Positions 138 to 24,525 are shown, numbered from the stretch's first letter. The stretch: 64,000 nt of DNA from Bradymonadia bacterium (GCA_044376085.1 JBILLN010000005.1:1125-65124); one strand, 5' to 3'. Notes: a model not told the origin generated them from the letters alone. Numbers and translations are program-made.

Positions 138-908
138 TCAGAACCGACTCGTGTAACCGATCGCACCGCCGCCCGGCACCATGCCGACGTCGATGCGCCC
201 GGCACCGGCCGAGTCCGCGTCGGCACGCCACCACAGAAAAACCGCCGTTCCAGCGGCGGCCGCCGCGGCCCCGAAACAGACATCCGCCACGAGCGCCCGA
301 GACTCTGCCGTGTCCTTGTGCTTCTGGGCGTCCCGCCGAATCTCCGCATCCCGGGCCGCCTGAGCCTCGCTCAGCGCCTGGAAGCCCATGACAGCGCCGC
401 CCGCCAGCGCGGCCACACCGACCCCCGCGGCGATCCAGGGCCATGGCCCAGGCCCCCGCTCGATGGTTTCGACCTCGACGGGCGCTTCGTCCGCCACGAC
501 CGTCGGCGCCTGGGCGACCGGCTCAGCACCGAGTTGCCGGACCTTGTGGATTACGGCCGTTTCGTCGGCGGGCTGCGTGGCGAGATAGGCGCGGTACCAT
601 TCCACGGCGCCCGGAATGTCCCCCATGCGCTCCCGGCTGCGCGCGACGTTGAAGAGCATGTCGCGGTGACGGGTCAGCGTGTGCGCCTTCTGGAACGCCT
701 GGGCGGCCGCCTCGAAGCGTCCGGCCCGGTAGTGACCGAGGCCGTCGAAGAAGACCGACTCGGCCTCGTCCAGCGTCTTCTGGTCGAGGGCACCGATTTC
801 GCGAATGTCCGTGAGTTCGGCAACGCTCACCGGCGCGCCCGGCGCTGCCTGCGCCGCATGGGTCACCGTGAGAAGGATGCAGAGGCTCGTGGAGAGTCGT
901 GCTTTCAT
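138..908 (-). CDS. Secreted TPR-like protein with a C-terminal single-pass membrane anchor
   Basis: ATG at 908 gives MKARLSTSLCILLTVTHAAQA, a signal peptide. A TPR-like helical hairpin follows, then a C-terminal hydrophobic helix WIAAGVGVAALAGGAVMGF. The start overlaps the upstream stop by 4 nt (ATGA). The track ORF 138..1283 is a 5' over-extension. Confidence 0.7.
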   Translation of the reverse strand: MKARLSTSLCILLTVTHAAQAAPGAPVSVAELTDIREIGALDQKTLDEAESVFFDGLGHYRAGRFEAAAQAFQKAHTLTRHRDMLFNVARSRERMGDIPGAVEWYRAYLATQPADETAVIHKVRQLGAEPVAQAPTVVADEAPVEVETIERGPGPWPWIAAGVGVAALAGGAVMGFQALSEAQAARDAEIRRDAQKHKDTAESRALVADVCFGAAAAAAGTAVFLWWRADADSAGAGRIDVGMVPGGGAIGYTSRF

Positions 909-6602: not shown

Positions 6603-7393
6603 GGGCGTTCCCTCGCGGCCTGAAGGACGACACTGGCGCGCTGATCGACCTTCGTCTGGTCGTCCTCGGCCAACAGGAAAAAGGCGGCGACACCCGCCGC
6701 GATCGCCACACCACCGGCAATCCCGGCGTACAGCCATACGTTGCTTCCGCCGTCGCTCTCCCGCTTCACGACCTGGAGGAAGAGCTCCACGGTCGGTTGC
6801 GGCTCCCCCTGGGCGAGCGCGAAGGGCACGTTGTTGGCGGTGTAGTCTCCGTATGGAAGATAGATGGTCGTCGGGACCTGGACGTCCGTCGACCGAAAGC
6901 GCTCACGAATGGAGAGGAAGGTCTGCTTCTTCTCCTTGTTGATGATGCCCGTCTTGGCTTCGAGGAAGACGCGGCCCTCCGTATTGGTCTCGCCGGCCGC
7001 GGCCTTGATGGTCACGCCACCGTAGAGGCCCTGCATCTCCTGCTGCCACTCCTCGACCATCTTCTGCTTCCGGGCGTCTTCGCCGGCGAGTGCCTTGGCC
7101 TTCTCGGCCATCGCGAAGGCCGTCTCGAGGACGAGCAGTTTGTAGGCGGCCCGGCCGCGATAGTAGACCGTCGTGAAGTCCGCATCGCCGCCCTTCATCT
7201 TGTAGGCCCGGTCGAGCTGACTCTTGGACTGCGGGAAGCGGTCCTTCTTGAAGTAGAGGATGCCCTGCTCGCGAACCTCCTCGAAGCTGGAGGCCGCGGG
7301 GGCCTCCTCGGCGGCCTCCTGCGCCCGGGCCGGAAGCGCCGGCAGCAAGGCGCTGCCCACACTCGCGACGGTCGCCAGGTAAAAACCTCTCAT
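6599..7393 (-). CDS. Secreted protein with a C-terminal single-pass anchor, similar in architecture to the protein at 138..908
   Basis: ATG at 7393 gives MRGFYLATVASVGSALLPALPARAQE, a signal peptide. The C-terminus has a hydrophobic helix WLYAGIAGGVAIAAGVAAFFLL. ATGA overlaps the DppF-like stop. Confidence 0.6.
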   Translation of the reverse strand: MRGFYLATVASVGSALLPALPARAQEAAEEAPAASSFEEVREQGILYFKKDRFPQSKSQLDRAYKMKGGDADFTTVYYRGRAAYKLLVLETAFAMAEKAKALAGEDARKQKMVEEWQQEMQGLYGGVTIKAAAGETNTEGRVFLEAKTGIINKEKKQTFLSIRERFRSTDVQVPTTIYLPYGDYTANNVPFALAQGEPQPTVELFLQVVKRESDGGSNVWLYAGIAGGVAIAAGVAAFFLLAEDDQTKVDQRASVVLQAARERP

Positions 7394-8418
7394 CCGGTGG
7401 CCTCCTTCGCCTCGGCGGCAAAACACGCGACCCAATGCGTCGGTCCCAGGGAAACCGGACGCGGTCGCTCGTTCGAACAACGGCTCAGAATGCCCAATCG
7501 GGCGCCGAGTTGGCAATCGGCGGCGTGCACGCATCCGCCAGTGGTCAGCCCGCTGCGCTCGGCCGGGTCGAACGGTCGCGGCGCTGCGGCCGCGGACTCG
7601 CCGCCGGTCGAATGGCGCCCCTCCTCGAGAAGGTCCGCCGCCCGCATGAGCTTGTGGGTGTAGGGGTGATGGAACGCCGCGTGCCCCAGCTCGGCAGCGG
7701 GCACTTCCTCGATGATCCGCCCCTTCAACATGACCAGCACCCGCTCGCTGATCTTCCGGACCAGACCGAGGTCGTGGCTGATCAGCAGATAGGCGAGATC
7801 GGGGTCTTTCAGGGTCTTGAGAAGCTCCACCATCTGCTGCTTGATCGCAGCGTCGAGGCCGGACGTCGGTTCATCGGCGACGATGAGCTTCGGCCGAGTC
7901 GCGAGAATGCGAGCGAGTCCGACCCGCCGACGCTCGCCGCCGGACAGACTCGCGGGGCGCTGCTCGGCCCGCGCCGAGAGACCGACGCGACCGAGAAGCT
8001 CCATGGCCTGTGCCGTCCGCCCGTTTGCGTCGAGCTCGGGCCGATGGAGCCGCAGCGACTCGTCCATCATCTCCCGGACCGTCATCTTCGGGTGCAGGTT
8101 GGCGCTCTGGTTCTGGAAGACCATCTGGAATTCGCGGCGGAGCGCGCGCAGCGCCTGGCTCGAAGCACGAAAGACGTCCTGACCATCGAACAGGACCGAG
8201 CCGGCATCCAGCGTCGTCAAGCGCAAGAGCACCTTGCCGAGCGTCGTCTTGCCACTGCCGGACTCCCCGATCAGCGCGACGACCTCGCCCTTGAAAATGT
8301 CGACGTCAACCCCGTCGATGGCGCGGTTCAGCGTCTTGCGCCGAAGGAGCCCCTCGCCGCCGAAGGTCTTCACGAGGCCACGTCCGACCACGAGGGGGAT
8401 GCGCTGCTCGACGGTCAC
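7390..8418 (-). CDS. Oligopeptide/dipeptide ABC transporter ATP-binding protein (DppF/OppF-like)
   Basis: Walker [10 protein letters not shown], signature LSGGERRR and Walker B LIVADEPTSGLD are present. GTG at 8418 overlaps the DppD-like stop as GTGA. The track ORF is over-extended at the 5' end. Confidence 0.85.
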   Translation of the reverse strand: MTVEQRIPLVVGRGLVKTFGGEGLLRRKTLNRAIDGVDVDIFKGEVVALIGESGSGKTTLGKVLLRLTTLDAGSVLFDGQDVFRASSQALRALRREFQMVFQNQSANLHPKMTVREMMDESLRLHRPELDANGRTAQAMELLGRVGLSARAEQRPASLSGGERRRVGLARILATRPKLIVADEPTSGLDAAIKQQMVELLKTLKDPDLAYLLISHDLGLVRKISERVLVMLKGRIIEEVPAAELGHAAFHHPYTHKLMRAADLLEEGRHSTGGESAAAAPRPFDPAERSGLTTGGCVHAADCQLGARLGILSRCSNERPRPVSLGPTHWVACFAAEAKEATG

Positions 8419-9320
8419 GACGCCACCTCCCCGACCGGCAGATCGGCGGCCGCGAGCAGCGTCGCGGTATAGGGGTGGCGTCGGCCCTGCCCGTTCTTGA
8501 GGTCCTCCGCGGAGACGACCTCGACGATGCGACCGTGCCGCATCACGATGATCTCCCGCGCCAAGAACAACACCTCGCGAATGTCGTGGGAGATGTACAT
8601 CATCGCCCGTCGCTCGGCCGCCAGGAGCTCCTGAAAGAGTTCGACGATCTCCTGCCTCACGGTCGTGTCGAGGCCTGTCGTCGGCTCGTCGGCGATGAGC
8701 AGCCGCGGCTGGCGCGCGAGCGCGATGGCGATCATGGCCCGCTGGCACATGCCCCCGGAGAGCTCGTGGGCATAACTCGCGTAGACCCGCGCCGGATCGT
8801 GGAGCTTGACCCGTGCCAGCCAGTCGAGTGACCGACCGCGGACCTCCGCGCGGCTTTGCCCCGGCGATGCCAACCGGACGGATTCGTCGAGCTGCGCACC
8901 GATGGTCATCAGCGGGTCGAGAGACTGCCGCGGATTCTGAAAGACCGCGGTCATCACCCGCCCCCAGAGCGGACGCCACCGACGCTGCACGAGACGATTC
9001 CACCGCCGATCGTCCTTTCGCACCGGACCGCGACTCGGCGTCGAAACGACCGACGGCAGGTCCGCGAGCAGGGACTCGCGCGAGTCGTCCAGCGTGAGGT
9101 CGATGCGGCCGGAAATCACGCCTGGACGGCCCGGTACGAGGCCGAGCACCGCCAGCGTCGAGAGGGTCTTCCCGCTTCCCGACTCACCCAGAATGCCGAG
9201 GACCTCCCCCTGCTGGACGGAGAAGCTCACCCCGTCGACGACCCGTCGACGGCCCGCACTGGTGTCGAACTCGATGACGAGGTCCGCCACCTCGAGCATG
9301 GGTGGGAGATGCTGCGTCAT
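8415..9320 (-). CDS. Oligopeptide/dipeptide ABC transporter ATP-binding protein (DppD/OppD-like)
   Basis: The protein starts [18 protein letters not shown]. Walker [17 protein letters not shown] and [12 protein letters not shown] are present. ATG at 9320 overlaps the permease stop as ATGA. Confidence 0.85.
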
Positions 9321-10135
9321 CGAATGGCCTCTTCGCCACGACGCGCCGCCAGGTTTCCGAACGCCAGGAATCCCGAGATCGTCAGCACGATGGCCGCCGC
9401 GGGCACCAGCCAGGGCCACGCCGAATCCGGCGGAAGGGAGCGCACCTGCGCGACCATGTTGCCCCACGACGGATCCGGCTCCTGAACGCCGTAGTCCCCC
9501 AGGTAGGAGAGACCGGTTTCCACGAAAAGCACGTACCCGAACACGAACGCGGCCTGTCGGACCATGATCGGCCAGCACTGCAACCACAGGATGTGATAGA
9601 CGATCACCCAGACAGGCCTGAATCCATGCGCGATGTGTGCGAGGATGTAGTCCTCGGAGCCGAGCGCTTCGACCTTTCGCCGAATGACGGTCGCGACCGT
9701 GGGAATGAAGAGCACCCCGGCGACGAAGGCGATCAGCGTCACGGACGGATTCCGGATCGTGCAGACCAGAATGATGAAGACGAGCCGGGGCAGCGTATCC
9801 AGGAGTTGGAGCGCACCGGCGATGACGGCGCGAACCGGTCCGGTCGCGTAACCGGCCACGGCGCCGGCCAACGCGCCAATGAAAACGGCGATCGCGGCGG
9901 CCATGAGACCGGGCAGAAAGAAGGCTTCCGTCCCCTTCACGAGACGCATCGCCACGTCCCGGCCCTGCTCGTCCGTGCCCAGGACATGCGCGCCGGAGGG
10001 GACCTCCAGGACGCGGTCGTACGAGACCGCATCCGCCGGTTCGTACGGGATGAACGGCGCGATGCTGCCGAGCAGCACGACCACCAGGACGATCGAGCCG
10101 CTCAACCAGAGACCGAGGCGCGAGAAGCTACCCAT
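9317..10135 (-). CDS. ABC transporter permease (DppC/OppC-like)
   Basis: Multi-pass hydrophobic protein of about 272 aa with a BPD-transporter-like core. It overlaps the DppB-like gene by 8 nt. Confidence 0.85.
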   Translation of the reverse strand: MGSFSRLGLWLSGSIVLVVVLLGSIAPFIPYEPADAVSYDRVLEVPSGAHVLGTDEQGRDVAMRLVKGTEAFFLPGLMAAAIAVFIGALAGAVAGYATGPVRAVIAGALQLLDTLPRLVFIILVCTIRNPSVTLIAFVAGVLFIPTVATVIRRKVEALGSEDYILAHIAHGFRPVWVIVYHILWLQCWPIMVRQAAFVFGYVLFVETGLSYLGDYGVQEPDPSWGNMVAQVRSLPPDSAWPWLVPAAAIVLTISGFLAFGNLAARRGEEAIR

Positions 10136-11120
10136 TCCGGGCGACCTCGCGAGGGTCGACAGCGGCGCGGACGACGTCCGCGACGAGGTTCATCACGATG
10201 ATGGCGAACGTGAAGAGAACGCTGAGCCCGACGACGACCGGGAAATCGCGCTGCTTCGAGGCCTCGAGCAGCAGGTAGCCGGCGCCGTCCAGGGTGAAGA
10301 CGTACTCGACGATGACGACGCCCCCCAGGACGACCGGCAGGCGTGCGGCGAATGCCGAGACGAACGGTACCACCAGGTTGCGAAACGTATGCGGAAGCGT
10401 CGAAGCCCCCTTCGACCGGATGGCCGCGATGAACTGCGCATTCCGGACGGCCAGAATCTCGGCGCGAACGGTATTGAGCATGTCCATGAAGAGTCCGTCG
10501 CCGGCGACGAGCACCAAACCGGCAAAGAAATAGGGCATCACGGACTCCGAATAGATGGGGATCGGGTACCACGGAGGGGTCTCGTACCCTGCGTCTTCGA
10601 CGAACCGCCGAACGAACGCATTCATCCCCTGCGAGAAGAAGATGGCGGCCACGAAGGCCGGCGCAGCCGTCAGAAAATACAGGAGTCCCGTCAACCACTG
10701 TTGCCGCGGCGACGGCTCCCCGAGTGCCACCGCGAGCGCCGTGGCGAGGAAGAGGCACAGGAGGAGCGCCCCGCCGCTCAGCAGCAGCGTCAGCTTGAAC
10801 GCCGGCCGTGCGATGGTCATCACCTGCTCGCCCGGAGCGAAGACCAGCGACTCACCGAAGTCCCCCGTCGCCGACCGACCCAACCAGGTCACGTACCCCG
10901 CGACCGGTGGCTGGTCGAGACCGAAGTCCGCCGCGAGCTTCTCTTTGACCTCAGGCGGCGTCCCCATCGGCGTGATGGCGTCAATGGCGTCACCGGGCGC
11001 CGACCGGATCGTGAAGTAGATCAGGAACGACGCGCCGACGAGCAACAAGAGACCCCCCGCCAGTCGACGCCCGGCCATGAGGACCAGGCCGAGCAGTCGG
11101 TTCAAGGGGAGAGCTCCCAC
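10128..11120 (-). CDS. ABC transporter permease (DppB/OppB-like)
   Basis: The N-terminus NRLLGLVL...FLIYFTIRSAPGDA resembles the DppB N-terminus. The protein has six or more predicted TM segments. It overlaps the binding-protein gene by 19 nt. Confidence 0.8.
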   Translation of the reverse strand: MGALPLNRLLGLVLMAGRRLAGGLLLLVGASFLIYFTIRSAPGDAIDAITPMGTPPEVKEKLAADFGLDQPPVAGYVTWLGRSATGDFGESLVFAPGEQVMTIARPAFKLTLLLSGGALLLCLFLATALAVALGEPSPRQQWLTGLLYFLTAAPAFVAAIFFSQGMNAFVRRFVEDAGYETPPWYPIPIYSESVMPYFFAGLVLVAGDGLFMDMLNTVRAEILAVRNAQFIAAIRSKGASTLPHTFRNLVVPFVSAFAARLPVVLGGVVIVEYVFTLDGAGYLLLEASKQRDFPVVVGLSVLFTFAIIVMNLVADVVRAAVDPREVARNG

Positions 11121-12658
11121 TCCGGGAACGAGGTGAAGTAGTAGAAGGGCTGGATATAGACGTTCCGGACCTTCTTGCTGATGCCCGAGTAGATGTCGAG
11201 GGACCAGAGGAAGTAGTACGGGAGGTCCTGGGCGAGCAGCGCGTGGAGCTGCTTCATCATTTCCTTGTACTTCTTGTAGTCCTTGGTCGCCTTGGCGGTG
11301 TCGAGCAGCGTGTCGACGTCCGCATTATTGTATCCGATGAAGTTCATCGGTCCCTTGCTGTGGAACAGCGGGTAGACGTCCTCGACCTCTTCGAACGACC
11401 AGATGTTCAGCGTCAGGTCGAACTTGCGACGGGTGAAGACCTGGTCGCGATAGCGGGCGTGGTCGACGTAGGTCGGCCGGGTCGTCACGCCGATCTTCTT
11501 GAGCTGCGCCTGAATGCCGAGGAAGAGAGCCTGGTTGCTGGCGAGTTCCTTGTCCATGACGAACTCGAAGTCGAGCTTGAGCTTGCCCTTCATCCGGACA
11601 TCGCCCTTCTTCTTCCACCCGGCGTCTTCGAGCAGCTGATTCGCCCGTTCGAGATCGACCGCGGCCTTCTCCACCTGGAAGTTGTAGAACGGGCTCGACT
11701 CGGTGAACGGCCCCGTCAAGATGTCGCCCCGACCCAGGTGAGCCTCCAGCAGCTCTTCGCGGTCGATCGCGAGGCCGATGGCCTGCCGCACGGGACGCTC
11801 GGCCAACGCCTTGTTCTCGTGGCTGTACGCCATGTACCACCAGGAGACCGTGTGGTACGGCTCGAGCACGACGGAGTCGCTGTTCTCGAAGAGGGCGATG
11901 TTCTTCGGCGGCAGGAAGATGACCGCCTGCACACCGGCCTTCACGCCCGAGTACTGGAGGAGGTTGATCTGGGCCGACTTGTCCGGCGTGTGCTGCATCT
12001 GCACTTCGCCGACCTTGGCCTGGTTCCAGTAGTCCGGATTCTGCTCGAGCGCGATGCTGCGCAGGCTGAACCCCCCCTTCTTCAGACGGAACGGCCCGGT
12101 CCCGACCGGTTCGCGCGCGAACTTGTCCTTGCGGCTGATCGCCGTGCCGGGGAAGGCGTGCTTCGGGATGATCTTCAGCGAGATGAACCGCTTCTCGGCC
12201 TCGGGAATCGGGCGCTCGAACGCGATGTGGACGCCGTACTGCCCCTCTGCGGTCACGTCACGGATGAAGTTGAACTTGCTCTTCGCGTTGAAGATCGTTT
12301 TCGGATCCTGTGCGGCCCGAATCGTGAAGACGACGTCCTCCGCGGTGAACGGCTCTCCGTCGTGCCACTTCACGCCTTCACGCAAGACGAAGCGAATGCC
12401 GCCCTGGTCGTCATCGACCTTCCACGAGGTCGCCAGACCCTTGTCGACGTCGCCCCGCTTGTTCTGGAAGACGAGCGAGTCGAAGATGAGTTCGACCATC
12501 CGGACGGCGCTCATGTCCTCCGCGAAGAACGGCAGCAGCGACGCCGGCCGGGTGTCCTCCGGGTAGTGGAACGTCTGCTGTGCGTTGGCGACCGTCGATC
12601 CGGGACCGAAGAACACGCCGAGGGCAATCGCGATGCGACCGAGAGTGCGCTGGAACAT
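11102..12658 (-). CDS. Periplasmic peptide-binding protein, SBP family 5 (DppA/OppA-like)
   Basis: 518 aa with a signal peptide MFQRTLGRIAIALGVFFGPGSTVANA. The length and conserved blocks (GVKWHDGEPFTAEDVVFT, GTGPFRL) are typical of family-5 binding proteins. Confidence 0.85.
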   Translation of the reverse strand: MFQRTLGRIAIALGVFFGPGSTVANAQQTFHYPEDTRPASLLPFFAEDMSAVRMVELIFDSLVFQNKRGDVDKGLATSWKVDDDQGGIRFVLREGVKWHDGEPFTAEDVVFTIRAAQDPKTIFNAKSKFNFIRDVTAEGQYGVHIAFERPIPEAEKRFISLKIIPKHAFPGTAISRKDKFAREPVGTGPFRLKKGGFSLRSIALEQNPDYWNQAKVGEVQMQHTPDKSAQINLLQYSGVKAGVQAVIFLPPKNIALFENSDSVVLEPYHTVSWWYMAYSHENKALAERPVRQAIGLAIDREELLEAHLGRGDILTGPFTESSPFYNFQVEKAAVDLERANQLLEDAGWKKKGDVRMKGKLKLDFEFVMDKELASNQALFLGIQAQLKKIGVTTRPTYVDHARYRDQVFTRRKFDLTLNIWSFEEVEDVYPLFHSKGPMNFIGYNNADVDTLLDTAKATKDYKKYKEMMKQLHALLAQDLPYYFLWSLDIYSGISKKVRNVYIQPFYYFTSFPEWELSP

Positions 12659-12685: not shown

Positions 12686-14257
12686 TCACTGGCCCGACGC
12701 GGCGCCGCCTTCCTGATCCATCGCACGGATGGTCAGAAGGTCACGCAGCATGTCCGCCGCAGCCGCGACCGCCGGAAAACGCTCGGCGAGGCGGCTGAAG
12801 TATTTGAGTGCGACGCGCGGTCGCCCGATGCGAACGTTTTCTCTGGCAGCCCGCGCCAGGGCGGCGACGCCGTTGCGCGGAGAGGGCGCGAACGCCGCGC
12901 TCTTGTCCTCGGCGTTCTCCAGATGCTTCAGGGCGACCTCGGGTGCTCCGCCGGACGAGGCCGCCTCGGCGAAGCGTCGCTCCACGGCATCCGCGTACCG
13001 CTCGACGAGGTTGAGCGCCGCCACGTCGGCCGCGCCCTTCGCTTCGGCCCCCAGGGCATCGATCTCCGCCCCGACGGTGCGGGCCAGCAACGCGCGGTCT
13101 TCGGGGAACGCTCCGGCATCGAGAGCGCCGCCGGTGGCCGTGGACGCCCAGGTCTTCAGGACCCGGTGGCCGATCGTGTCCGTCGGGAGTCCGGCCACAT
13201 CGGCCTTCGCCCCTTCGGCGTCCCCGGAAGCATGTCGAGCCCGAGCGAGCAACGCCCGCGCCTCCAGCGCGAGGTCCGCCCCCGAGAGCGCGTCCGTCAG
13301 GACGAGGTCGGCGAGCGGGGCCTCCGCCGGTGGTGCCGCGACGAGGGGTTCGAGTACGGTCTTCGCCTCGGCCGACCGACCGAGAAGCAGCAGGGCCCGC
13401 GCCTTGTGCAAGGCGGCCCAGCCCGGCGCCGGCCCGAGCGCTTCGAGCGCCCGCGTGGCGTGAACGCGCACGCCGAGATCGGCCAGTGCCGGGTCACGGA
13501 AGGAAACGGCGCCCTCACCCGGTCCGACGACGACATCCGGGGCGTTGGGCGGGATCTTCTCGAAGCGTGCGACGGCCTCCGTGGAGCGTCCGGCGGCGGT
13601 CAGGGCCGCGACGGCGAGTCGCGCCCCGTACTCCGGGGTCGCCCCGGGCGGGAGCGGTGCGTCCAGGCCTTCGACCTTGCCGGCCAGCAGCGCTGCGAGG
13701 GGACCCGTCGCCCCCGCTTTGGAGGCGGCGACGAGCGCGGCCAGCGGGCCGTCGGTCGCGAGGGCGCTCAGGTCCGGTGGACGGCCCGCACGGGTCGCCA
13801 GTCGTGCGCGCATCCACACGCGCCACGCGGCCCCTTCCGCGCCACCGGCGTCCGTCTTGGCTTCGGCGAGGCGTTCGGTGAGATCGGCCACGACCATCGC
13901 GACCGCGTCGTGCGCGGCCGCCAATTCGAGCGCGGCACGGGCTGCCCCCGTGCGCACCGGGTCGCCGGGCGGGGCCGTGCGAACCCCGGCCTCGAACGCT
14001 TCCAACGCGCCGGCCGGGTCGGACGTGAAGAGCTTGCCCCACCCCGGATTGGACTGGGCGAGCGTACCCAAAGCCGTCGCGTCCTTCGCCACGGCCAGCA
14101 CCCAGCTCTCGCGAACCCGGGCGCGGTCTGCGGACACGTCCACCGCAGGGGCGGAGGGCGCGCCACCCGGTGGACGTGCGGCCCGCTCCGTGCAGCCCGG
14201 ACCGACACCGACCAAGAGAGCGGCGGTCAGAGCGACGCGCCGGACGGAAGGCTTCAT
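12686..14257 (-). CDS. Ala-rich helical (TPR-like) lipoprotein
   Basis: ATG at 14257 gives MKPSVRRVALTAALLVGVGPGC, a lipobox. The composition is highly Ala/Leu-rich and helical-repeat-like. The upstream gene lies 5 nt away. The track ORF has a 5' over-extension. Confidence 0.6.
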   Translation of the reverse strand: MKPSVRRVALTAALLVGVGPGCTERAARPPGGAPSAPAVDVSADRARVRESWVLAVAKDATALGTLAQSNPGWGKLFTSDPAGALEAFEAGVRTAPPGDPVRTGAARAALELAAAHDAVAMVVADLTERLAEAKTDAGGAEGAAWRVWMRARLATRAGRPPDLSALATDGPLAALVAASKAGATGPLAALLAGKVEGLDAPLPPGATPEYGARLAVAALTAAGRSTEAVARFEKIPPNAPDVVVGPGEGAVSFRDPALADLGVRVHATRALEALGPAPGWAALHKARALLLLGRSAEAKTVLEPLVAAPPAEAPLADLVLTDALSGADLALEARALLARARHASGDAEGAKADVAGLPTDTIGHRVLKTWASTATGGALDAGAFPEDRALLARTVGAEIDALGAEAKGAADVAALNLVERYADAVERRFAEAASSGGAPEVALKHLENAEDKSAAFAPSPRNGVAALARAARENVRIGRPRVALKYFSRLAERFPAVAAAADMLRDLLTIRAMDQEGGAASGQ

Positions 14258-14262
14258 CCCGC

Positions 14263-15972
14263 TCAGAGCTCCAGACCGTTCTTCATCTCTTCGAGTTTCT
14301 TCATCTTGGCTTCGGCCGACGCGACGCCGCCGGGATCCGTCCCGCGCGCGATCGTGGCGTAGCGCTCCCACTGACGAAGCGCTTTGTCAATCAGGGAGAC
14401 GTTCGCCTTCTTCGGATCGTCGCTGTACTGGCGTTGGAACTCGAACTCGTACATTTCGGCGTAGAACTTGAAAGCGTCGTCCTTGAGATCGGCGGGCAGA
14501 TTCCGGATGTTCTCGTCCACCCGCTGCATGGTGCTCAAGGCCTTCCGGTAGTTGTTCGACTGGGCGTAGGACTTGGCAAGCGAAAGCAAGATGGTCGGGT
14601 CGCGCTTGTACCGCCCGCTGGTCGTGGCGACTTCGAGTTCCTCCGCCTGCCGGCGATAGTCTTTGTTCTTGTGGTGGTAGTCGGCCATGAGCCGATGGGC
14701 CTCGTAGTAGCCAGGGTGCGTCCGGTCGATCTGGCCGAGGAACTCCATGTCCGCCCGCGTCAGGACCTTGGACTGGCCGAGGCGACCCTGGATCTCGTCG
14801 AGCTTGCCGTCGATCTCCTCTTTGGACATCGTCGCGGCGCTCGGGCCACCCGCCGAAAGGGCAACGCCGCCGCGCTGTGCGGCCTTGGGGTCGACCGTGT
14901 CGCCGCCATCGTTCATCAACCCGCCGAGTTCCGTCGACTCGCGCGGCGCCTTGGGGGTCGCGACGCGCGGGGCCTCGACGACCGGGGGCGGCGGGGCGGC
15001 GGGTTCGTCGGGCAGCAGGTCATCGATGCCGGGCGCTTCGTCCCGCGGCGGCGGGGTCGGCGGCGCGACCGCGACGACCGGCGGCGGGGGCTCACGCTCC
15101 GGCGGCGGCTCGAACGCCGGCTCGGGGGCGATGTCGACCGAACCGGAGTTGCCACGAGACGCCGCGCGAGGCGCCGGCGTCGGCGCGGCGGCGACGGCCC
15201 ACGGATCGGGCTGGGCCTCGGCCGGTGGGGGGGTGGGCGCGGCCTCCGCGACGACCGCCTCGGGGGCCGGCGTCGGCACCGCAGGTTCTGTCGCCGGAGC
15301 TGCGGCGACCTCGACCGGCGCGGCGCCCGAGGGACCATCGGCGACCGGCCCGGTCCGAAGGGCCGAGAGAAGATAGACTTCGTCGTCCTCGGAGAACGTG
15401 CCCCGGAAGACGGCCGTGCCGGCCGACGCGACGAACTGGGCTCCGGGAACCCCGGAGATCTTGACCAGGGCGTCGCCCCCCGGGCCGGTCTTCCCGACCG
15501 CGACGTCGTTCACCTTGATGGGCGTACCCTCGGGCTCGGCCCGGACCATCAAGAGGAAGTCGCGCTCCGGACGCTGCAGCTCGGCGCGGAAATCGATCTG
15601 CAACGGGCGTCCGTCCGCCGGGTACTGGATCTTGACCTGCCACCGGCTCTGGTCGGGATTGGGCGGAACACTGTACCCCTCGGGTGCTTCGACGTTGAAC
15701 GTCAGCGTGTCGCCGTTCTTCGCCGGGTACTTGCCGGCGAATTTGCCCTCTTGGTCCGTGATGCCGAACTTCTTGTTGTTGATGTAGAAGCGAACGCTCT
15801 CGACCGGTTTGCTCTGCAAGTCGACCGTGGAGACGTTGAGCAGCACTTCCTGCTGGGGCGGCGGGGCGGCCGGTTTCTCTTTGCACCCACCGACCACCAT
15901 CAACGCCGTCAAGGCGAAGAGCACGAGAGCGGACGTGGCGCGCACGGGCAGGTTCGGAGTCGTCGTATTCAT
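14263..15972 (-). CDS. Lipoprotein with an N-terminal beta-sandwich-like domain, a Pro-rich linker and a C-terminal helical domain
   Basis: MNTTTPNLPVRATSALVLFALTALMVVGGC is a lipobox. The linker is about 120 aa and P/A-rich. The C-terminus is helical and Tyr-rich, and TPR-like. Confidence 0.65.
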   Translation of the reverse strand: MNTTTPNLPVRATSALVLFALTALMVVGGCKEKPAAPPPQQEVLLNVSTVDLQSKPVESVRFYINNKKFGITDQEGKFAGKYPAKNGDTLTFNVEAPEGYSVPPNPDQSRWQVKIQYPADGRPLQIDFRAELQRPERDFLLMVRAEPEGTPIKVNDVAVGKTGPGGDALVKISGVPGAQFVASAGTAVFRGTFSEDDEVYLLSALRTGPVADGPSGAAPVEVAAAPATEPAVPTPAPEAVVAEAAPTPPPAEAQPDPWAVAAAPTPAPRAASRGNSGSVDIAPEPAFEPPPEREPPPPVVAVAPPTPPPRDEAPGIDDLLPDEPAAPPPPVVEAPRVATPKAPRESTELGGLMNDGGDTVDPKAAQRGGVALSAGGPSAATMSKEEIDGKLDEIQGRLGQSKVLTRADMEFLGQIDRTHPGYYEAHRLMADYHHKNKDYRRQAEELEVATTSGRYKRDPTILLSLAKSYAQSNNYRKALSTMQRVDENIRNLPADLKDDAFKFYAEMYEFEFQRQYSDDPKKANVSLIDKALRQWERYATIARGTDPGGVASAEAKMKKLEEMKNGLEL

Positions 15973-15991
15973 GGCTTGGCTGCCCGTCCCG

Positions 15992-16423
15992 TCAATTGCC
16001 GATGACCGGCGTGGAGGTCGTATCGGCTTCGAATTCCTTCTCCTGCGTCGGATCCGGGGCCGTCTCGTTGATGTCCGGTGTACGAGGCGCGAGCGTGATG
16101 TCCGGGACCTTGGTCGGTCCGCCCTCGATGGTGACCTCGTACGCGGCGTCTTCGAAGCCGAACTTGCGGACCTTGATCTTGTAGACGCCGGCGGGAATCG
16201 GCTCCGTCTCTCCGGACTCGTTCAGCCGCTGGCGCAGGGTGAAGAAACCACGGTTATTGGTCATGACGACGTCGGTCTCGGGCTCGGTGAAGATCTCGGC
16301 CTTCGAGACTGCGCTGCCCTTCTGGTCGAGAACACGTCCGGTCAGCGACACGGGCTGCGAGCCGCACGCGACGAGCGTCAGGAGGGCGGCCCAGAGGCCG
16401 GTCACGCGGAGAATGGCGTTCAT
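15992..16423 (-). CDS. Small lipoprotein with a carboxypeptidase-regulatory-like (CarbopepD_reg/PEGA-like) beta-sandwich
   Basis: MNAILRVTGLWAALLTLVACGS is a lipobox. LTGRVLDQKGSAVSKAEIF...GVYKIKVRKFGF is typical of the fold. Confidence 0.6.
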   Translation of the reverse strand: MNAILRVTGLWAALLTLVACGSQPVSLTGRVLDQKGSAVSKAEIFTEPETDVVMTNNRGFFTLRQRLNESGETEPIPAGVYKIKVRKFGFEDAAYEVTIEGGPTKVPDITLAPRTPDINETAPDPTQEKEFEADTTSTPVIGN

Positions 16424-16433
16424 GGCGGCGCTC

Positions 16434-16904
16434 CTACTGCTTCATCCGCTGACCGATGACGCTCATCGCGTACTCCACGGTCAGGTCGCGGGGGTCGAGA
16501 TCACGGAGGCTGGCGAGGTGGTCGTAGGCATCCGTCAACTTGCCGTCGATCGACGCCTGGACCGCCTTGCCGAGCAGGTCCTGCCGGAGTCGGGCAATCT
16601 CGGGAGCACCATTCGCCTGGGCGATGCGGTTTCCGATCTCCTGCAGCAGGTCCGGTGCATCGTTCTGAAGCTTGCGGCCCGTGATGAGCAGGTAGGCGCG
16701 CGCGTACTTCTTCAGCCCTTGCGAAAGCATGTCTGCCTTCTTGTCGGCACGCGCTTTCGCCGCGTCGTCGAGCAGCGCGCGGCCCTCGTCGGCCATTGCC
16801 TTGGCATCTTCGACGGGTCCGGCGAAGGCCGGCACCGCGAAGAACGCGAGGCCGAGGACGAGCGCGCAGCGAACGGGCACTGAACGTGGAGAGCGCAAAC
16901 GCAT
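16434..16904 (-). CDS. Small secreted helical protein
   Basis: Signal peptide MRLRSPRSVPVRCALVLGLAFFAVPAFA. It lies 10 nt upstream of the next gene. Confidence 0.5.
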   Translation of the reverse strand: MRLRSPRSVPVRCALVLGLAFFAVPAFAGPVEDAKAMADEGRALLDDAAKARADKKADMLSQGLKKYARAYLLITGRKLQNDAPDLLQEIGNRIAQANGAPEIARLRQDLLGKAVQASIDGKLTDAYDHLASLRDLDPRDLTVEYAMSVIGQRMKQ

Positions 16905-16972
16905 CGAAACTCCTTGGAAACCGACAGGCGACGTTAATTCACGGCCCCCGGAGAGTCAACGACCCCACCGGC

Positions 16973-19231
16973 TCACGGGCGCGCCAAGGTGAGGTCCACC
17001 GTGGTTCCGGGAGCGGAGAGCGTCACGTCCTTCTCTTGGGACGCAAACCCAGGCAGCTCGACCTGGAAACGCGCGACCGTCCCGTTCGATCCAAGGAGAG
17101 TGAGCGGGGTCCGGCCGATCTCTTTGCCGTCGAGCCGGATCGTCGCGCCCGAGGGGTCCGTCCGGACCGTCCCGGCCCCCAGCTCGCCACTGCCGCTGGC
17201 CGGCAATCGGACGTGGAGCCAGACCTCGCCACGGGTCTCGTCCAGCCGAGCCCGCCAGGAGCTCTTGCCCTTCGAGAACTGGAGCGAATGGGCCTCCCCC
17301 GTCGGCGTGACCGGGTGCTCGAGCGGCGTCTCACCGACGAAGAGGTTGCGATCGAAAACCTCGACCGCGGGCGGGTCGCTCGACACGACGAGCTTCGGGG
17401 GCGATTGCGGCTCCGCGGCCGCGCCGGCGCCGAACGGGTCGAGCAGAACGACCCCCACGACCGCGGCCGTCGTCAAGGCGACCGCCGCGCCGACCGCCAG
17501 CCAGGTCTTCAAACCGGCGCCGCCGCTGCGGACGGGTCCACCCGCCGGCAGTCCGACGGCCGTCGGTCGGGGGTTGATCTCGCGGGGGGGCGCCTTGACG
17601 GTCGGCAAGGCCGGCACCGAAGGCGCGTCCGCCGATGCGGGCCCGACGGCGCGTGGCGGCGGCGGCGAGGCGGCCGGGGGCGCCGGCGGAGAAGGCGCCG
17701 GCGCGGGGTGACCCATGAGAGTTCGTTTGTCGGACCCGGCTGGTGGCGGCGACCGCGCGGGGGGCGGCGCAGGGGCAGGTTCCGGCAAGCGGGCCGGGGC
17801 CTTCGACTCGGGCGGTTCGAACCGCTGAACGGGCATGCCGGTCCGGGTCGCTTTGGGTTCGGGAGCAGGCGCCGCGGACTTCGAGCCCCCACGCGCCGCC
17901 GCTTCGACGTCGGCGATCGGCACGATGCGCGACGGCTCGACCTCCATCAGCTCGCCGTCGTCGAGTTCGAGCATGGTCGACTCTTCGGCTCGGGAGGACA
18001 GCCCCGTCGGGATGATGCCTCCCCCCCCGAACGTGTCGATGCTCGGACCCATCATGACGCCGTCGTCGAGGTCGCCGTCCTGGCTCGCATCCCCGCCGTC
18101 GTCGGTCTCGAAGAACGTCTTCTCTTCGGCGGCCGGGGTGGGCTGTGGCTCGTCGCCGAACTCGAGAAACGTGCGCTCGTCGTGAAAGGACTGCGCTTCG
18201 GCGGACTCGTCGGCCGGATCGAGCACGGCGTCGGGCGGCGGTGCCACGGGCCGCGAGACGTTTTCGTCCGTCGGTCGGGTATCGGGCTGAGAGCCGACAC
18301 GTCCCGCCCGGGCCGCCAACTGAGCCGGGACAGCGTAGAAGCCGCTGTTGAACTTGTAGTTCTCGAGGGCTTCGAGAAACTCGTCGGCCGACTGGTATCG
18401 GGCGCGACGGTCCTTCTCGAGGGCCCGGAGGACCGTCCGTTCGAGTTCGACGTTGATCTCCCCTCGCAAGGACCGCAGCGCGGGCGGCAGGTCGCGCAGA
18501 TGGGCCATCATGACTTCGACGGGGGTCGGCGCGACGAAGGGCAACCGGCCGGCGAGCAGCTCGTAGAAGATGATGCCGAGCGAGTAGAGGTCCGACTGGG
18601 GCTCGACCGGCTTGCCGCGGATCTGCTCGGGGCTCATGTAGTTCGGCGTCCCGTAGATCTTGCCGGCCATCGTGAGACCACCCTGGTAGCCCTCGACGCC
18701 GTCCTGGACGGCGGTGAGCTTGGCGATCCCGAAGTCGAGGACCTTGACGAAGTCGCGGTCCCCTTCCATTTCGGTCAGGAAGACGTTGTCGGGCTTCAGG
18801 TCGCGATGAACCATGCCCATCCGGTGCGCTTCCGCGATGGTGCGCAGCGTCTGGGTCATGATCTTGACCGCCCCCTCGATCTTCAGCGGGCCGACGCGCC
18901 GGAGGCGCTGCTTCAGCGTCTCGCCACCGAGGAACTCCATCGCGATGTACAGCAGGCCGTCGACCGTCTGCCCGAAGTCGTGGATGACGATCGCGTTCGG
19001 ATGCTTGAGACGCGACGCGAGATAGGCTTCGTGGCGAAACCGCTCGACGGAGATCGGGTCACCGCGCTGGTCGTGCAGCAGGATCTTCAGGGCCACGACC
19101 CGGTCGACGGAGATCTGACGGGCCTTGTAGATGGCCCCCATCCCGCCTTCGCCGAGCTTCTCGAGGATCTGGAAGCGGTCGTCGATCACCGCACCGAGAA
19201 GCGAGTCTGCCGAAAATTCGTCGCGCGACAT
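16973..19231 (-). CDS. Ser/Thr protein kinase with a Pro-rich linker, one TM helix and two extracytoplasmic PEGA domains
   Basis: ATG at 19231 gives MSRDEFSADSLLGAVIDDRFQILEKLGEGGMGAIYKA. HRDLKPDN, DFG and SPE motifs are present. The TM helix is WLAVGAAVALTTAAVVGVVLL. PEGA-like blocks occur in the C-terminal 200 aa. The track ORF 16973..20371 over-extends the N-terminus. Confidence 0.85.
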   Translation of the reverse strand: MSRDEFSADSLLGAVIDDRFQILEKLGEGGMGAIYKARQISVDRVVALKILLHDQRGDPISVERFRHEAYLASRLKHPNAIVIHDFGQTVDGLLYIAMEFLGGETLKQRLRRVGPLKIEGAVKIMTQTLRTIAEAHRMGMVHRDLKPDNVFLTEMEGDRDFVKVLDFGIAKLTAVQDGVEGYQGGLTMAGKIYGTPNYMSPEQIRGKPVEPQSDLYSLGIIFYELLAGRLPFVAPTPVEVMMAHLRDLPPALRSLRGEINVELERTVLRALEKDRRARYQSADEFLEALENYKFNSGFYAVPAQLAARAGRVGSQPDTRPTDENVSRPVAPPPDAVLDPADESAEAQSFHDERTFLEFGDEPQPTPAAEEKTFFETDDGGDASQDGDLDDGVMMGPSIDTFGGGGIIPTGLSSRAEESTMLELDDGELMEVEPSRIVPIADVEAAARGGSKSAAPAPEPKATRTGMPVQRFEPPESKAPARLPEPAPAPPPARSPPPAGSDKRTLMGHPAPAPSPPAPPAASPPPPRAVGPASADAPSVPALPTVKAPPREINPRPTAVGLPAGGPVRSGGAGLKTWLAVGAAVALTTAAVVGVVLLDPFGAGAAAEPQSPPKLVVSSDPPAVEVFDRNLFVGETPLEHPVTPTGEAHSLQFSKGKSSWRARLDETRGEVWLHVRLPASGSGELGAGTVRTDPSGATIRLDGKEIGRTPLTLLGSNGTVARFQVELPGFASQEKDVTLSAPGTTVDLTLARP

Positions 19232-19330
19232 GCAGCTCCTGTGAGGACCGGGTCGGATATTAACCCAGCGCGCCGGGAGTGCAAACCAGGAGTGCGGCCC
19301 TGCCCCCTGGCCGATCGCCCTTCGGACGCG

Positions 19331-19358
19331 TTGACCCGCTCCGCTCACCTTGTATAGA
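19331..19358 (+). promoter_or_regulatory. Sigma70-like promoter candidate: TTGACC-16 nt-TATAGA with TG at -15/-14
   Basis: An AT-rich island in GC-rich DNA, about 40 nt upstream of the ATG at 19397 (MKIPS...). It sits in the divergent intergenic region between the kinase and the FCGBP-like lipoprotein. Confidence 0.35.
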
Positions 19359-19396: not shown

Positions 19397-21448
19397 ATGA
19401 AGATCCCCTCGACCGGGCTTCGGGTGGCCCTCTCCGCCCTTTCGCTCTTCCCGGTTGCCTGCGGCTCGTCCGACGGCGCGACCCCCGAAGTGCAGGAGGA
19501 CGCCACGACTGCGGAGGCCGGCGCCGGCGGCGGCGGTGGGACACGCCCGGACGCGAGCGGCGGGGGCGGTGCCAGCGAGTGCACCCCCGATGAACGTCGC
19601 TGTTCGGAAGCGGGTCAGCCCGAACGATGCACCGACGGGCGTTTCCGCGCGGACGACCCGTGTGCTCCCAACGAGGTCTGCACCGACGGCAACTGCCAGG
19701 TGCCGATGCTCTGCGAGCCGGACACGACGCGGTGCGCGGACGCTCGCACGCTCGAGATCTGTGCGCCCGACGGTACGTCCTGGGTGTCGACGGAGTGCGA
19801 GGGCAGCTGCAACTCCGCCGGTGGGACGGCGACGTGCGGGGATGTCGTCTGCGCGGCCGGAGAACGGACCTGCTCGGGCGACCAGATCGTGATCCAGTGC
19901 AAGGCCGACGGTACCGGGTTCGAGTTCGCCGAGAACTGCAACGGCGCGCGGACGGCGCGCCAGTGCGACCGGGGTGAGTGCCAGCCGATCTGCAAGCTGA
20001 CCGAGAAGCTCAGGACCAACATCGGCTGCGACTACTGGGCCGCCGATCTGGACAACGCCTTCGTGCCCGGTGGCGAAGAAGGCTTTCTCGACGCGGCCGC
20101 CGAGCAGTATTCGGTCGTCGTCTCGAATCCGCACCCCGAGTTCACGGGCGAGGTCTCCGTCTACAACAACGAGGAGGTCGTCGAGACGGCGGTCGTGCCG
20201 CCGCTGGGGCTTCACGTCTTCAATCTGCCGCGCCGGGACGTCGACGGCACCATCCTGGCGCCGCGCGCGTATCGCGTGCGGAGCAGCATCCCCGTCGTGG
20301 CCTACCAGTTCAATCCCCTCCAGAACGAAGACGTCTTCAGCAACGACGCCTCGCTTCTCCTGCCCAGCCACGTGCTGGGCAAGAAGTACTACGTCATGAC
20401 CCGCGAGCAGAGCTTCGACCGCCTCCGCGGATACCTGACGGTCATCGGCATCAACGAAGAGGCCCCGACGCGAGTCCGCGTCACGGTGACCGCCCCCACC
20501 CGCCCGGGCGTGAGCGGGATTCCGGCCCTCGCCCCCGGCGAAACGTTCGAGGCCACGCTCAACCAGTTCGACACCTTGAACATCGAAACCAATGCCCCCG
20601 GCGCCGACCTCACGGGGTCACTCATCGAGGCGGACTCGGAGGTCGTCGTTTTCGGCGGCAGCGAAGCCGCCAATGCCCCGAACACGAACCATTGCGTGAA
20701 CGTGGATCCGGCAACCGGCGAGGGCGTCTGCGAGTACAAGACGGACGTGACGTGCCGGACGAACTACGACTGCAACGACGCCCGGCTGAACACGTGCTGC
20801 GCCGACCACCTCGAAGAGCAGCTCTTCCCGGTGTCGACGCTCGGCAAACACTACATCGGCACCAAGAGCTTCGACCGCGGGCTGGAGGACGACTACTGGC
20901 GGATCCTCGCGGTCGAGGACGGCACCAAGGTCGAGACCGTGCCTCCCCAGGTGCCGATCCCGGAGCTGAACGCGGGCCAGTGGTTCGAGTTCGGCAGCCG
21001 GGAGCACTTCGAGATCCTGAGCGACAAACCGATCATGGTCGGTCAGTTCCTGGCGAGCGAGCAGGCACCGGACCCGAATCTGCGCGACTTCGAGGAGCCC
21101 GGGGACGCCGGGACGGGTGATCCGTCGTTCATCCTCGCCGTGCCGGTCGAGCAGTTCCGCTCGGACTTCGTCTTCCTCGTGCCGGACAAGTACGCCTACA
21201 ACTACGTCTCCCTGATCGCGCCGGTGACGGCTGCCATCGACTTCGACAACGGCCCCGTGCCCGCCACGTTCGAGCCCGTCGGTGCCGGCGACATCTGGCA
21301 GATTGCGCGATTCCCCGTCGGGGCGGGGGTCCATTTCATCCTGTCGGACGAGCCCCTTTCCATCATCGTCTACGGCTACGACCAGTACGTTTCGTACGGG
21401 TATCCGGGCGGCCTGAACCTCGACGTGACGGCGGAGCTCGAGCAGTGA
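19397..21448 (+). CDS. Lipoprotein with an N-terminal Cys-rich module and an IgGFc-binding-protein N-terminal-like (FCGBP_N) domain
   Basis: MKIPSTGLRVALSALSLFPVACGS is a lipobox. A repeated CxxxxC...C module follows. C-terminal blocks HVLGKKYYVMT, VVVFGGSEAANAP and SDKPIMVGQFLASEQA resemble the FCGBP_N domain. Confidence 0.65.
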   Translation: MKIPSTGLRVALSALSLFPVACGSSDGATPEVQEDATTAEAGAGGGGGTRPDASGGGGASECTPDERRCSEAGQPERCTDGRFRADDPCAPNEVCTDGNCQVPMLCEPDTTRCADARTLEICAPDGTSWVSTECEGSCNSAGGTATCGDVVCAAGERTCSGDQIVIQCKADGTGFEFAENCNGARTARQCDRGECQPICKLTEKLRTNIGCDYWAADLDNAFVPGGEEGFLDAAAEQYSVVVSNPHPEFTGEVSVYNNEEVVETAVVPPLGLHVFNLPRRDVDGTILAPRAYRVRSSIPVVAYQFNPLQNEDVFSNDASLLLPSHVLGKKYYVMTREQSFDRLRGYLTVIGINEEAPTRVRVTVTAPTRPGVSGIPALAPGETFEATLNQFDTLNIETNAPGADLTGSLIEADSEVVVFGGSEAANAPNTNHCVNVDPATGEGVCEYKTDVTCRTNYDCNDARLNTCCADHLEEQLFPVSTLGKHYIGTKSFDRGLEDDYWRILAVEDGTKVETVPPQVPIPELNAGQWFEFGSREHFEILSDKPIMVGQFLASEQAPDPNLRDFEEPGDAGTGDPSFILAVPVEQFRSDFVFLVPDKYAYNYVSLIAPVTAAIDFDNGPVPATFEPVGAGDIWQIARFPVGAGVHFILSDEPLSIIVYGYDQYVSYGYPGGLNLDVTAELEQ

Positions 21449-21489
21449 CGCCGTCCGCGTGGCCAAACGTCCCTCACTTCGGAAGGAGC

Positions 21490-24400: not shown

Positions 24401-24525
24401 ATATCCTGACGATCATTCCCTTCCGCGTCGACGGGCGATTCGACTTCGGCGAGTTCACGTACGACGAGCTCAGCCAGTTCCGCTGGAAGGCCTGGGCCGT
24501 GCATTCCACGGTCTTCACCCCCTGA
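21490..24525 (+). CDS. Large lipoprotein with multiple IPT/TIG (Ig-like) domains
   Basis: A GGAAGGAG RBS lies 2-9 nt upstream of the ATG at 21490. MPMRAIPLLAMLSVLTLGCEG is a lipobox. Repeated P..G...GG..V.I.G.GF IPT-like units are present. Confidence 0.75.
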   Translation: MPMRAIPLLAMLSVLTLGCEGEPGADAPTESTASTCGDGVDNDGNGRVDCDDTSCDAFCEEVSGDARLRSDQGTEPEGDGGPPPGDAERPPADGGTGSDDANVIVVPDASEVLQPFGINSVVPNRGILAGGTEVRIIGTGFKPEVVFLFANQFECRNIVVENQNRATCTTPPGEQVGPADVLAQQPSSDPFARPGTMEQVQLTAGFAYYEPVSISTVTPDRIPLRGGVQLTVRGTGLVEGTEVHVGDTEALSPEYIAPDEMRVFAPAGSPGFAEVRVGNFNGNDTLARAVFYYEDLELLAVEPGAGPLAGGNEVVLTGRGLVDASMVTFGDAVAAVVEGSADHARLTVTAPAGDARGPVDVSVTNDNGTSVLRGGYVYFDPGADALAVDGLAPASGPVEGGNAVFVAGAGFAADTSVTVAGRVVDCDRIDEHVLRCTMPPGDLGPADVAVRSGGDSVLLPGGYTYYQSLEILAVRPEAGAVAGGTFVALTGRGFVDGMTIDLGGIELVDVRVVGDARAEGRTPPNTAGPVDVHVTSPFARATLPAGYTYFDPISRFGGVWGDEIRGAVNVTTIHATTGAFLEEVAVLAISEETEVRIEGLTNAQGQVVLSEEGLRGPLNITAAKEGFEVTTVEDVETQNVTIYLTPNTSEMGPPPPGVAPAILRGNVSGLDLLPKPDRESKVNVIVVETTHSTPYNRPYLPPPGPGGLLFEDGPFEIIARPGELAIVATAGALDRAVLTQYENGELDYWSMRQSLEPASMGLRRFISASPGIELDGLDVEIDHPMDLELPIDLDNPPAGGAGGPEYYAALIRLNLGAEGFWEIDTQAFDLQPALVMPRLPRLDGWDADITYYFFGLAISATDSQTPMSITVEETRDVEGGVLITPFVAAPFLVDPLDGAALADSRVVDWETYPGFDGPIDPPDGNLVLIEEPAFPAPKPMWRYVTPGPVSEYQIPELPEIAGSAGLSAELNILTIIPFRVDGRFDFGEFTYDELSQFRWKAWAVHSTVFTP

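Follow-up and report, generated by a model that had tools for sequence, protein, structure and literature searches.

A PEGA-ectodomain receptor Ser/Thr kinase gene adjoining a clade-specific train of exported-protein and importer genes in Bradymonadia-like Myxococcota

The locus described here lies in a window of 64,000 nucleotides (nt) from a Bradymonadia bacterium (JBILLN010000005.1:1125-65124), to which all coordinates refer; its genes are on the minus strand unless a sign is given. A gene coding for a receptor-type Ser/Thr kinase (16973..19231) is followed there by four genes for exported proteins, hereafter A to D, and by an ATP-binding cassette (ABC) importer. The locus is real, deeply conserved and clade-specific, with a probable regulatory role for the kinase. 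In the explanation that we favor, and to which we would give an even chance, it is a vertically inherited envelope locus specific to a clade of uncultured Myxococcota/Bradymonadia-like bacteria, composed of three adjacent units with promoter-like elements of their own, in which the kinase is a regulatory add-on. The three units are a divergent pair of genes coding for an IgGFc_binding-domain protein and a TIG-repeat protein, the kinase gene, and a train of about 17 kb that runs from A-D through the importer to gene J, a propeller gene, gene L and the genes of a MopE-repeat and a TPR protein. The kinase gene would not be the first cistron of one obligate operon but a separately transcribed and sometimes dispensable neighbor of the train.

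The spacer between the kinase gene and gene A carries a promoter-like element (16931..16959) made of TTGACT (16959-16954), a 17-nt spacer and TAACGT (16936-16931), followed by the strong Shine-Dalgarno sequence AAGGAG (16915-16910). When 13 orthologous kinase-A spacers were aligned, TTGAC was the sole invariant block, its usual form being (G)CGTTGACTTGCCG. Chance would place this pentamer in about 5% of 100-nt spacers at a GC content of about 65%, and about nine independent lineages have it at an equivalent position of the spacer; as judged from these alignments, its recurrence is far beyond chance. At 17 nt past TTGAC, the orthologues present -10-like hexamers such as TGCAAT, TGTAGT, TCTAGT and TAGGCT, with TATACT at 19 nt, and these hexamers are often preceded by TG as in extended -10 elements. 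The kinase gene is itself preceded by a promoter-like element (19257..19284) of presumed function: TTGCAC (19284-19279), a 16-nt spacer and TAATAT (19262-19257), with the Shine-Dalgarno sequence AGGAG at 19240-19236. The corresponding pattern, cTTG(C/A)nC, about 17 nt, TA(A/G)(A/T)AT and then GGAG, was retrieved in 10 of the 13 orthologous upstream regions, and the kinase leader is very short.

Among the gaps of the train, the kinase-A spacer is also both the longest and the most variable. Most loci have 62-150 nt at this place, L023 has about 1.1 kb, and in two others (L005 and L018), for which the start calls are uncertain, the spacer is apparently reduced to -4 to -1 nt. In the initial annotation, the kinase headed the whole cluster and a strong promoter or terminator signal between it and position 16904 was named as the observation that would speak against this. 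A conserved sigma70-type promoter-like element is indeed present at this place, and the orthologues with long spacers possess a GC-rich hairpin of -22 to -29 kcal/mol right after the kinase stop codon, but the window itself shows no hairpin after this codon. Since the hairpin is missing and the stop codon is separated from the -35 box by just 13 nt, transcription in the window organism is likely to continue to some extent from the kinase gene into A.

To evaluate the conservation of the locus, one genome per GTDB species was scanned with the alignment of protein C and 19 loci were returned, all of them from Myxococcota-type metagenome-assembled genomes (MAGs). As determined by tblastn of the window proteins, the gene order is kept wherever the contigs are long enough (L004-L022), with 45-90% amino acid (aa) identity: TIG and IgGFc_binding in one direction and, in the other, kinase, A, B, C, D, substrate-binding protein (SBP), two permeases, two ATPases, J, the PD40 propeller and L. 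The block and the divergent pair are syntenic in at least 14 divergent MAG lineages, and L033-L035 agree with this arrangement. In the distant syntenic loci (L023, L026/L027 and L030), the identities fall to 40-42% for the kinase, 36-40% for A and 33-37% for C; the C protein of L023 is 37% identical, and L026/L027, which are labelled Bradymonadia, give 41% for the kinase, 36% for A, 33% for C and about 30% for D. The genes common to the window and to the named MAGs place the window in the uncultured Myxococcota. The window and L026/L027 each have a LysM/M23 peptidase gene a few kb further upstream, and this common neighbor indicates a vertically inherited region of the core chromosome rather than an island. 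That the kinase has stayed beside A-D and the importer in 14 or more divergent lineages speaks for a functional link.

Three lineages depart from this arrangement. In L024/L025 (L024:8550-9010), the succession A-B-C-D-ABC-J-PD40-L-MopE is intact without the kinase and without the IgGFc/TIG pair, the upstream genes being UbiA, YdjY and a methyltransferase, and TTGACT-17-TGTAGT still stands in front of gene A in the kinase-less L024. In L020 (UBA1238; L020:2837-4207) and in L029 (L029:2352-3863), the gene at the kinase position encodes proteins of 456 and 503 aa, respectively, without a kinase domain. Both products keep the acidic T/S motifs, the transmembrane segment and the two-module ectodomain of the kinase, and no room is left for a kinase domain before the IgGFc gene; they apparently result from independent deletions of about 300 codons, or else from assembly artefacts. 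A kinase orthologue residing away from the locus had been put forward in the initial annotation as contrary evidence: one lineage does have the train with no kinase at the locus, while the adjacency is kept in at least 14. Taken together, the spacer element, the hairpins of the orthologues and the kinase-less train argue against an obligatory co-transcription. A functional link is supported by the persistent position of the kinase gene, and also by the transmembrane segment and ectodomain being retained in the products devoid of a kinase domain.

The kinase and A-D genes were confirmed at their earlier coordinates by listing of the open reading frames (ORFs) and translation, and identical metagenome contigs, on which genes had been called independently, yield the same five products (752, 156, 143, 569 and 523 aa). 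Their called frames have a GC content at third codon positions of 0.82-0.91, the GC content of the window being 64-73%, and all five proteins are conserved in the orthologous loci. The start of gene D is at 14257 (MKPS...), in agreement with the orthologues and with the lipobox; the first GTG of this ORF, at 14371, does not fit. The intergenic gaps are 68 nt between kinase and A, 10 nt between A and B, 19 nt between B and C, 5 nt between C and D and 27 nt between D and the SBP gene. Downstream of the latter, and as far as position 138, the junctions are overlaps of 4-8 nt for the permeases, the ATPases and three more exported-protein genes, and gaps of 5 and 8 nt for the last two genes. Overlaps of 4-8 nt from the SBP gene to L are also seen in the orthologous loci, and the train of about 17 kb is, as far as its gene junctions can tell, largely translationally coupled. 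The first annotation is thereby upheld for the receptor-type Ser/Thr kinase heading a same-strand row (ORFs, strand and Pfam), for the four secreted or lipoprotein genes behind it (signal peptides, lipoboxes, Pfam and orthologue alignments) and, from the coordinates, for the gaps of 5-68 nt. Its 19-kb cluster from 19231 to 138 stands in that the same-strand train does reach 138, but the reading of one operon with the kinase as its head is weakened.

Such an operon of about 19 kb, transcribed from the kinase promoter and having the kinase both as first cistron and as dedicated sensor of the envelope module, seems unlikely to us. It would account for all 16 genes being on the same strand with gaps of at most 68 nt, for the lack of any terminator-like site in the consensus scan of 12686-19231, for the short hairpin-free distance from the kinase stop codon to the -35 box in the window and for the apparent overlap of the kinase stop with the called A start in L005 and L018. 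It is difficult to reconcile with a conserved promoter-like element inside the kinase-A spacer, with the hairpins found after the kinase stop in several orthologues and the 1.1-kb spacer of L023, with a train that keeps the same promoter without a kinase in L024/L025, and with the kinase-domain-less versions of L020 and L029.

The converse possibility, in which the kinase is uncoupled from A-D and the importer, serves the IgGFc/TIG proteins or unrelated pathways, and owes its linkage to vertical inheritance in a slowly rearranging region, is to be regarded as improbable as well. In L024/L025, the train is intact but the kinase and the IgGFc/TIG pair are jointly missing, the wider synteny is also kept (including SDF, LysM/M23 and GT2 neighbors), the kinase has its own promoter-like element and no recognizable substrate domain is encoded in the cluster. 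Nevertheless, the IgGFc/TIG pair needs no kinase, since dozens of distant contigs contain it without an adjacent one; the kinase-A adjacency persists down to 40% kinase identity while more distal flanks change; and the kinase-domain-less orthologues hold the transmembrane segment and the ectodomain at the exact position of the kinase, suggesting a local function.

The kinase itself is a Hanks-type Ser/Thr kinase of 752 aa, as supported by Pfam (Pkinase, PF00069, 155 bits), by its motifs and by the alignment of its orthologues. The catalytic domain covers residues ~13-305 (19195-18317) and contains the complete set of core motifs: GEGGMG at 27, VALK with Lys49, HRDLKPDN at 142, DFG at 166-168 and SPE at 200. 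These Hanks motifs are invariant across 10 orthologues, and the kinase is predicted to be catalytically competent because they are intact. In most lineages the catalytic domain shows 75-82% identity, far above the ectodomain, and no other part of the protein is as well conserved; this points to a strong selection on catalysis and indicates that catalysis matters wherever the domain is present. It is followed by an acidic, Pro-rich and disordered linker (residues 306-574) of about 270 aa that could not be aligned between orthologues except for a KRTLxGHP patch and three E-x-T-hydrophobic-hydrophobic-E motifs. The latter were found by regular expression and alignment at residues 352-421 of the cytoplasmic linker (17969..18178): ERTFLE (352), EKTFFE (370) and ESTMLE(LDD) (417). 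Among the 10 orthologues, T354 is invariant and T372 nearly so, and these threonines are candidate autophosphorylation, phospho-acceptor or docking sites.

A single transmembrane segment (residues 575-597; 17509-17441) connects the linker to the ectodomain (residues 598-752; 17440-16976). It corresponds to the only hydropathy peak of the protein (residues 578-597), and this hydrophobic segment is kept in the orthologue alignment, as expected for a single-pass receptor. Within the ectodomain, residues 688-749 (17170-16985) form a PEGA domain in Pfam (PF08308, 47.6 bits for a cut-off of 20.8). The first module (residues 598-687) has no Pfam match by itself, only the second one being significant as PEGA; the entire unit of 130 aa aligns with consecutive repeats of multi-PEGA proteins, and the ectodomain is probably a tandem of two PEGA-like sandwiches. 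Full-text literature searches on PEGA-domain kinases returned no paper addressing them. To our knowledge, the ligands of PEGA-type kinase ectodomains are not known.

In the favored explanation, where the kinase is a regulatory add-on, the link would most likely consist in the transmembrane segment and the tandem PEGA-like ectodomain sensing, or docking to, the periplasmic assembly or the substrate of the latter. In response, the cytoplasmic domain might phosphorylate its own acidic Thr motifs and cytoplasmic targets, with the ABC ATPases, a transcription factor or a regulator of the promoters as candidates, and part of the transcripts of the kinase gene may extend into A in the window organism. 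Several points weigh against this explanation. The -10 hexamer of the kinase-A element in the window (TAACGT) is weak, with 3/6 consensus matches, and a consensus promoter/terminator scan of 12686-19231 highlighted nothing except a weak site inside the kinase gene. The scan misses the kinase-A element because of this 3/6 match, and the evidence for the element is comparative and does not come from the scan. The kinase domain or the entire kinase gene is absent in three lineages, which implies that the module works without phosphorylation there. In the Pfam scan of the cluster proteins, no FHA domain, response regulator or phosphatase and no obvious kinase substrate could be detected. Finally, every regulatory step of the model is inferred, and vertical inheritance alone could maintain the adjacency of the kinase.

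A more ambitious proposal, to which we attach a rather low probability, makes the kinase an integral subunit of an undescribed periplasmic lipoprotein/importer assembly. Its transmembrane segment and tandem-PEGA part would bind to one or more of A-D, L or the SBP, the kinase would read the substrate load of the importer in the manner of a transceptor, and the kinase module would be detachable, as suggested by its loss in L020 and L029. It appears very unlikely that the linker, transmembrane segment and tandem-PEGA part are the essential scaffold subunit of the periplasmic module and that the kinase domain is an optional accessory lost repeatedly: the products of 456 and 503 aa of L020 and L029 do retain the acidic motifs, the transmembrane segment and the ectodomain, a 503-aa representative (P0224) is present in the family census and, among the kinase domains of the set, that of L012, which is closely related to L029, diverges most (45%), but the two cases both come from MAG or metagenome assemblies in which a deletion or a misassembly is possible, and the high identity of the kinase domain in most lineages reflects a strong selection on catalysis. 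The census in question, in which the linker, transmembrane segment and ectodomain were searched against 1.84 billion representatives, contained P0224 as its one clear kinase-domain-less representative and is weakly informative, as the ectodomain matches hundreds of generic multi-PEGA proteins.

The kinase shares its general organization with the PASTA kinases PknB/Stk1, namely an N-terminal Hanks domain, a juxtamembrane linker, a single transmembrane segment and, at the C-terminus, small extracytoplasmic sensor domains arranged in tandem. Against the PknB/Stk1 model NF033483, it scores 306 bits for a cut-off of 450, the aligned model positions (2-276) being those of the kinase domain. It differs from these kinases by a PEGA-type beta-sandwich ectodomain without any Pfam PASTA match, which places it outside the PASTA kinases. 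Unlike that of PknB/Stk1, this ectodomain should also be periplasmic, since the host is a diderm Myxococcota.

The nearest documented precedent for a membrane Ser/Thr kinase gene beside ABC transporter genes is the PknF-Rv1747 pair of Mycobacterium tuberculosis, in which PknF is encoded in an operon with the ABC transporter Rv1747 and positively regulates it by phosphorylation (PMC3138270, PMC3908365). Rv1747 is an exporter with two signal-receiving FHA domains, whereas the window importer is SBP-dependent, of the Opp/Dpp type and has no FHA match, so that it does not belong to the same system; moreover, four exported-protein genes and a promoter-like element stand between the kinase and the transporter in the window. 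If the kinase reads or controls the module, the locus would be a conserved example, in a diderm, of Hanks-type signaling connected to an SBP-dependent importer with its periplasmic lipoproteins, and would provide a first context for PEGA-type kinase ectodomains. It should help annotation and is a suitable target for complex prediction; as a receptor Ser/Thr kinase gene by a transporter operon, here with clade-specific exported proteins, it is of a kind already known.

The first gene of the train, A (16434..16904), encodes a secreted all-helical protein of 156 aa with a type-I signal peptide (cleavage AxA|GP) and six helices in its AlphaFold2 (AF2) model (pLDDT 89.6). Its resemblance to TPR folds of the PDB is weak (E ~0.09, TM-score 0.3-0.4), and its family comprises 61 clusters among 5.8 billion proteins, all at 50% identity or more. 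Gene B (15992..16423) codes for a lipoprotein of 143 aa, identified by Pfam and orthologue alignment as a CarboxypepD_reg (transthyretin-like) beta-sandwich: the PF13620 match (39.6 bits for a cut-off of 32.3) recurs in the orthologues, where the lipobox residue C20 is invariant. The C-terminal tail of B is also conserved (PRTPDIxExAPD...S.P..G-x; 15992-16100) and is perhaps a sorting or interaction motif.

Protein C (14263..15972) is a lipoprotein of 569 aa whose lipobox residue C30 is invariant in the orthologues and which was analyzed by alignment, AF2 modelling and Foldseek. A pair of beta-sandwiches at residues 41-209 (15852-15346), for which the AF2 model is confident, is followed by a Pro-rich disordered linker of about 160 aa (residues 212-374) and by a TPR-like helical domain at residues 384-568 (14823-14269), both delimited in the same model. 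Against the PDB, the sandwiches match those of the pilin/CnaB type, and the C-terminal domain, without any Pfam match, retrieves TPR proteins such as KLC1, MamA and BamD (E 4e-5 to 3e-4, probability 1.0). The C family counts 34 clusters among 5.8 billion proteins. As with known envelope TPR lipoproteins, C is a lipoprotein with a C-domain structurally near the R. marinus BamD (3qky, E 2.7e-4) and MamA; it has no sequence-level relationship with them, and adds the two N-terminal beta-sandwiches and the 160-aa disordered linker. Gene D (12686..14257) encodes, according to the orthologue alignment, an Ala-rich helical lipoprotein of 523 aa, with an invariant lipobox residue C22 and a sub-threshold TPR_19 match (21.2 for a Pfam cut-off of 25). 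The protein ends in an invariant GQ (12686-12700), again perhaps a sorting or interaction motif.

When A, C and D were searched as sequence profiles against every PDB chain, no match reached an E value below 0.02, and hence no relative of solved structure emerged; no match above the cut-off was obtained for them in Pfam, and none of A, B, C, D, J and L falls into an NCBIfam family. A, C and D are three clade-restricted families with good structural models or alignments, and in view of their strict synteny they could be members of one physical complex.

It had been noticed in the initial annotation that PEGA and CarboxypepD-like domains recur in the kinase ectodomain, in the lipoprotein encoded at 15992 and in the protein encoded at 4309, and a common ligand or scaffold had been deduced from this shared fold. 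The recurrence was verified by Pfam matches above the cut-offs, and protein C adds its two beta-sandwiches to this set of PEGA and CarboxypepD_reg domains. The deduction of a common ligand or scaffold found no support, as no specific mutual similarity was found and the ectodomain type is widespread. When B was compared by hhalign with C and with the kinase, the match was limited to the signal peptide and the first strand (probability of 38% and 0.5%, respectively), and a specific homology of B with the N-domain of C or with the kinase ectodomain was rejected by this profile-profile comparison. The kinase ectodomain type was retrieved in 783 representative clusters at E <=1e-3, many of which are long multi-repeat proteins. 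PEGA and CarboxypepD_reg are generic extracytoplasmic modules and their recurrence is no pointer to a common ligand.

Downstream of D, the importer (7390..12658) is composed of one SBP_bac_5 gene (11102-12658), two BPD_transp_1 permeases (10128-11105 and 9317-10135) and two ABC_tran ATPases (8415-9320 and 7390-8418), all identified by Pfam. This composition and the start/stop overlaps of 4-8 nt are those of an Opp/Dpp-type importer, one of the ATPases having a weak oligo_HPY tail. Compared with the NCBIfam equivalogs NikA, Opp4A, DppA, OppA, GsiB and SapA, every match was below the cut-off. It resembles the Opp/Dpp/Nik importers by its single cluster-C SBP, its two BPD_transp_1 and two ABC_tran proteins and its tightly overlapping genes, and differs from the canonical opp/dpp operons in being embedded among clade-specific lipoproteins, a TolB-like propeller and PEGA and MopE proteins.

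The remaining genes of the train are gene J (6599-7393), which codes for a protein of 264 aa with a signal peptide and a C-terminal transmembrane segment, and four genes assigned by Pfam: a TolB-like PD40 propeller (5463-6602), the PEGA protein L (4309-5466; 23.8 bits for a cut-off of 20.8), a Cys-rich MopE-repeat lipoprotein of 1132 aa (905-4303) and a TPR protein with a transmembrane segment (138-896). The gene of the MopE lipoprotein follows L after a 5-nt gap; its product combines at least five Cys-rich repeats of the MopE type with an extended C-terminal region rich in Gly. L024 likewise has a MopE-repeat protein behind L.

On the other side of the kinase gene, the divergent pair consists of an IgGFc_binding-domain protein (19397-21448 (+)) and a TIG-repeat protein (21445-24525 (+)), both assigned by Pfam. 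The promoter-like element of this unit is made of TTGACC (19331-19336), 16 nt and TATAGA (19353-19358) on the plus strand; its -35 sequence is conserved, CGCGTTGACC, and GGTCAACG(C/A) is kept in every orthologous divergent region. The pair was also detected, with 38-51% identity, in dozens of more distant metagenome contigs (L037-L079), mostly without an adjacent kinase or A-D. The idea of a kinase travelling with the pair was rejected, as this metagenome scan shows the pair to be widespread without a kinase. The IgGFc/TIG genes are an autonomous two-gene module which, in this clade, happens to be attached to the locus. In most orthologues, the IgGFc unit (19327-19336 (+)) and gene A (16955-16961 (-)) have -35 boxes of the same extended form, CG(C)GTTGAC, which could represent a clade-typical -35 context or the site of a common regulator.

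The Rfam search of 12686-19231 detected no RNA family. ARAGORN placed a tRNA-Glu (anticodon CTC at position 31) at 18386-18461 (+), antisense within the kinase coding sequence; as the Rfam tRNA model is silent there, this call is very probably a false positive. Elsewhere in the window, a c-di-GMP-I-GGC riboswitch aptamer (RF03167; 61.0 bits for a gathering score of 59) was found at 60824-60898 (+), about 400 nt upstream of a large ORF (61314-63821), and a giant ORF of 3842 aa, rich in TPR repeats, occupies 46158-57686 (-).

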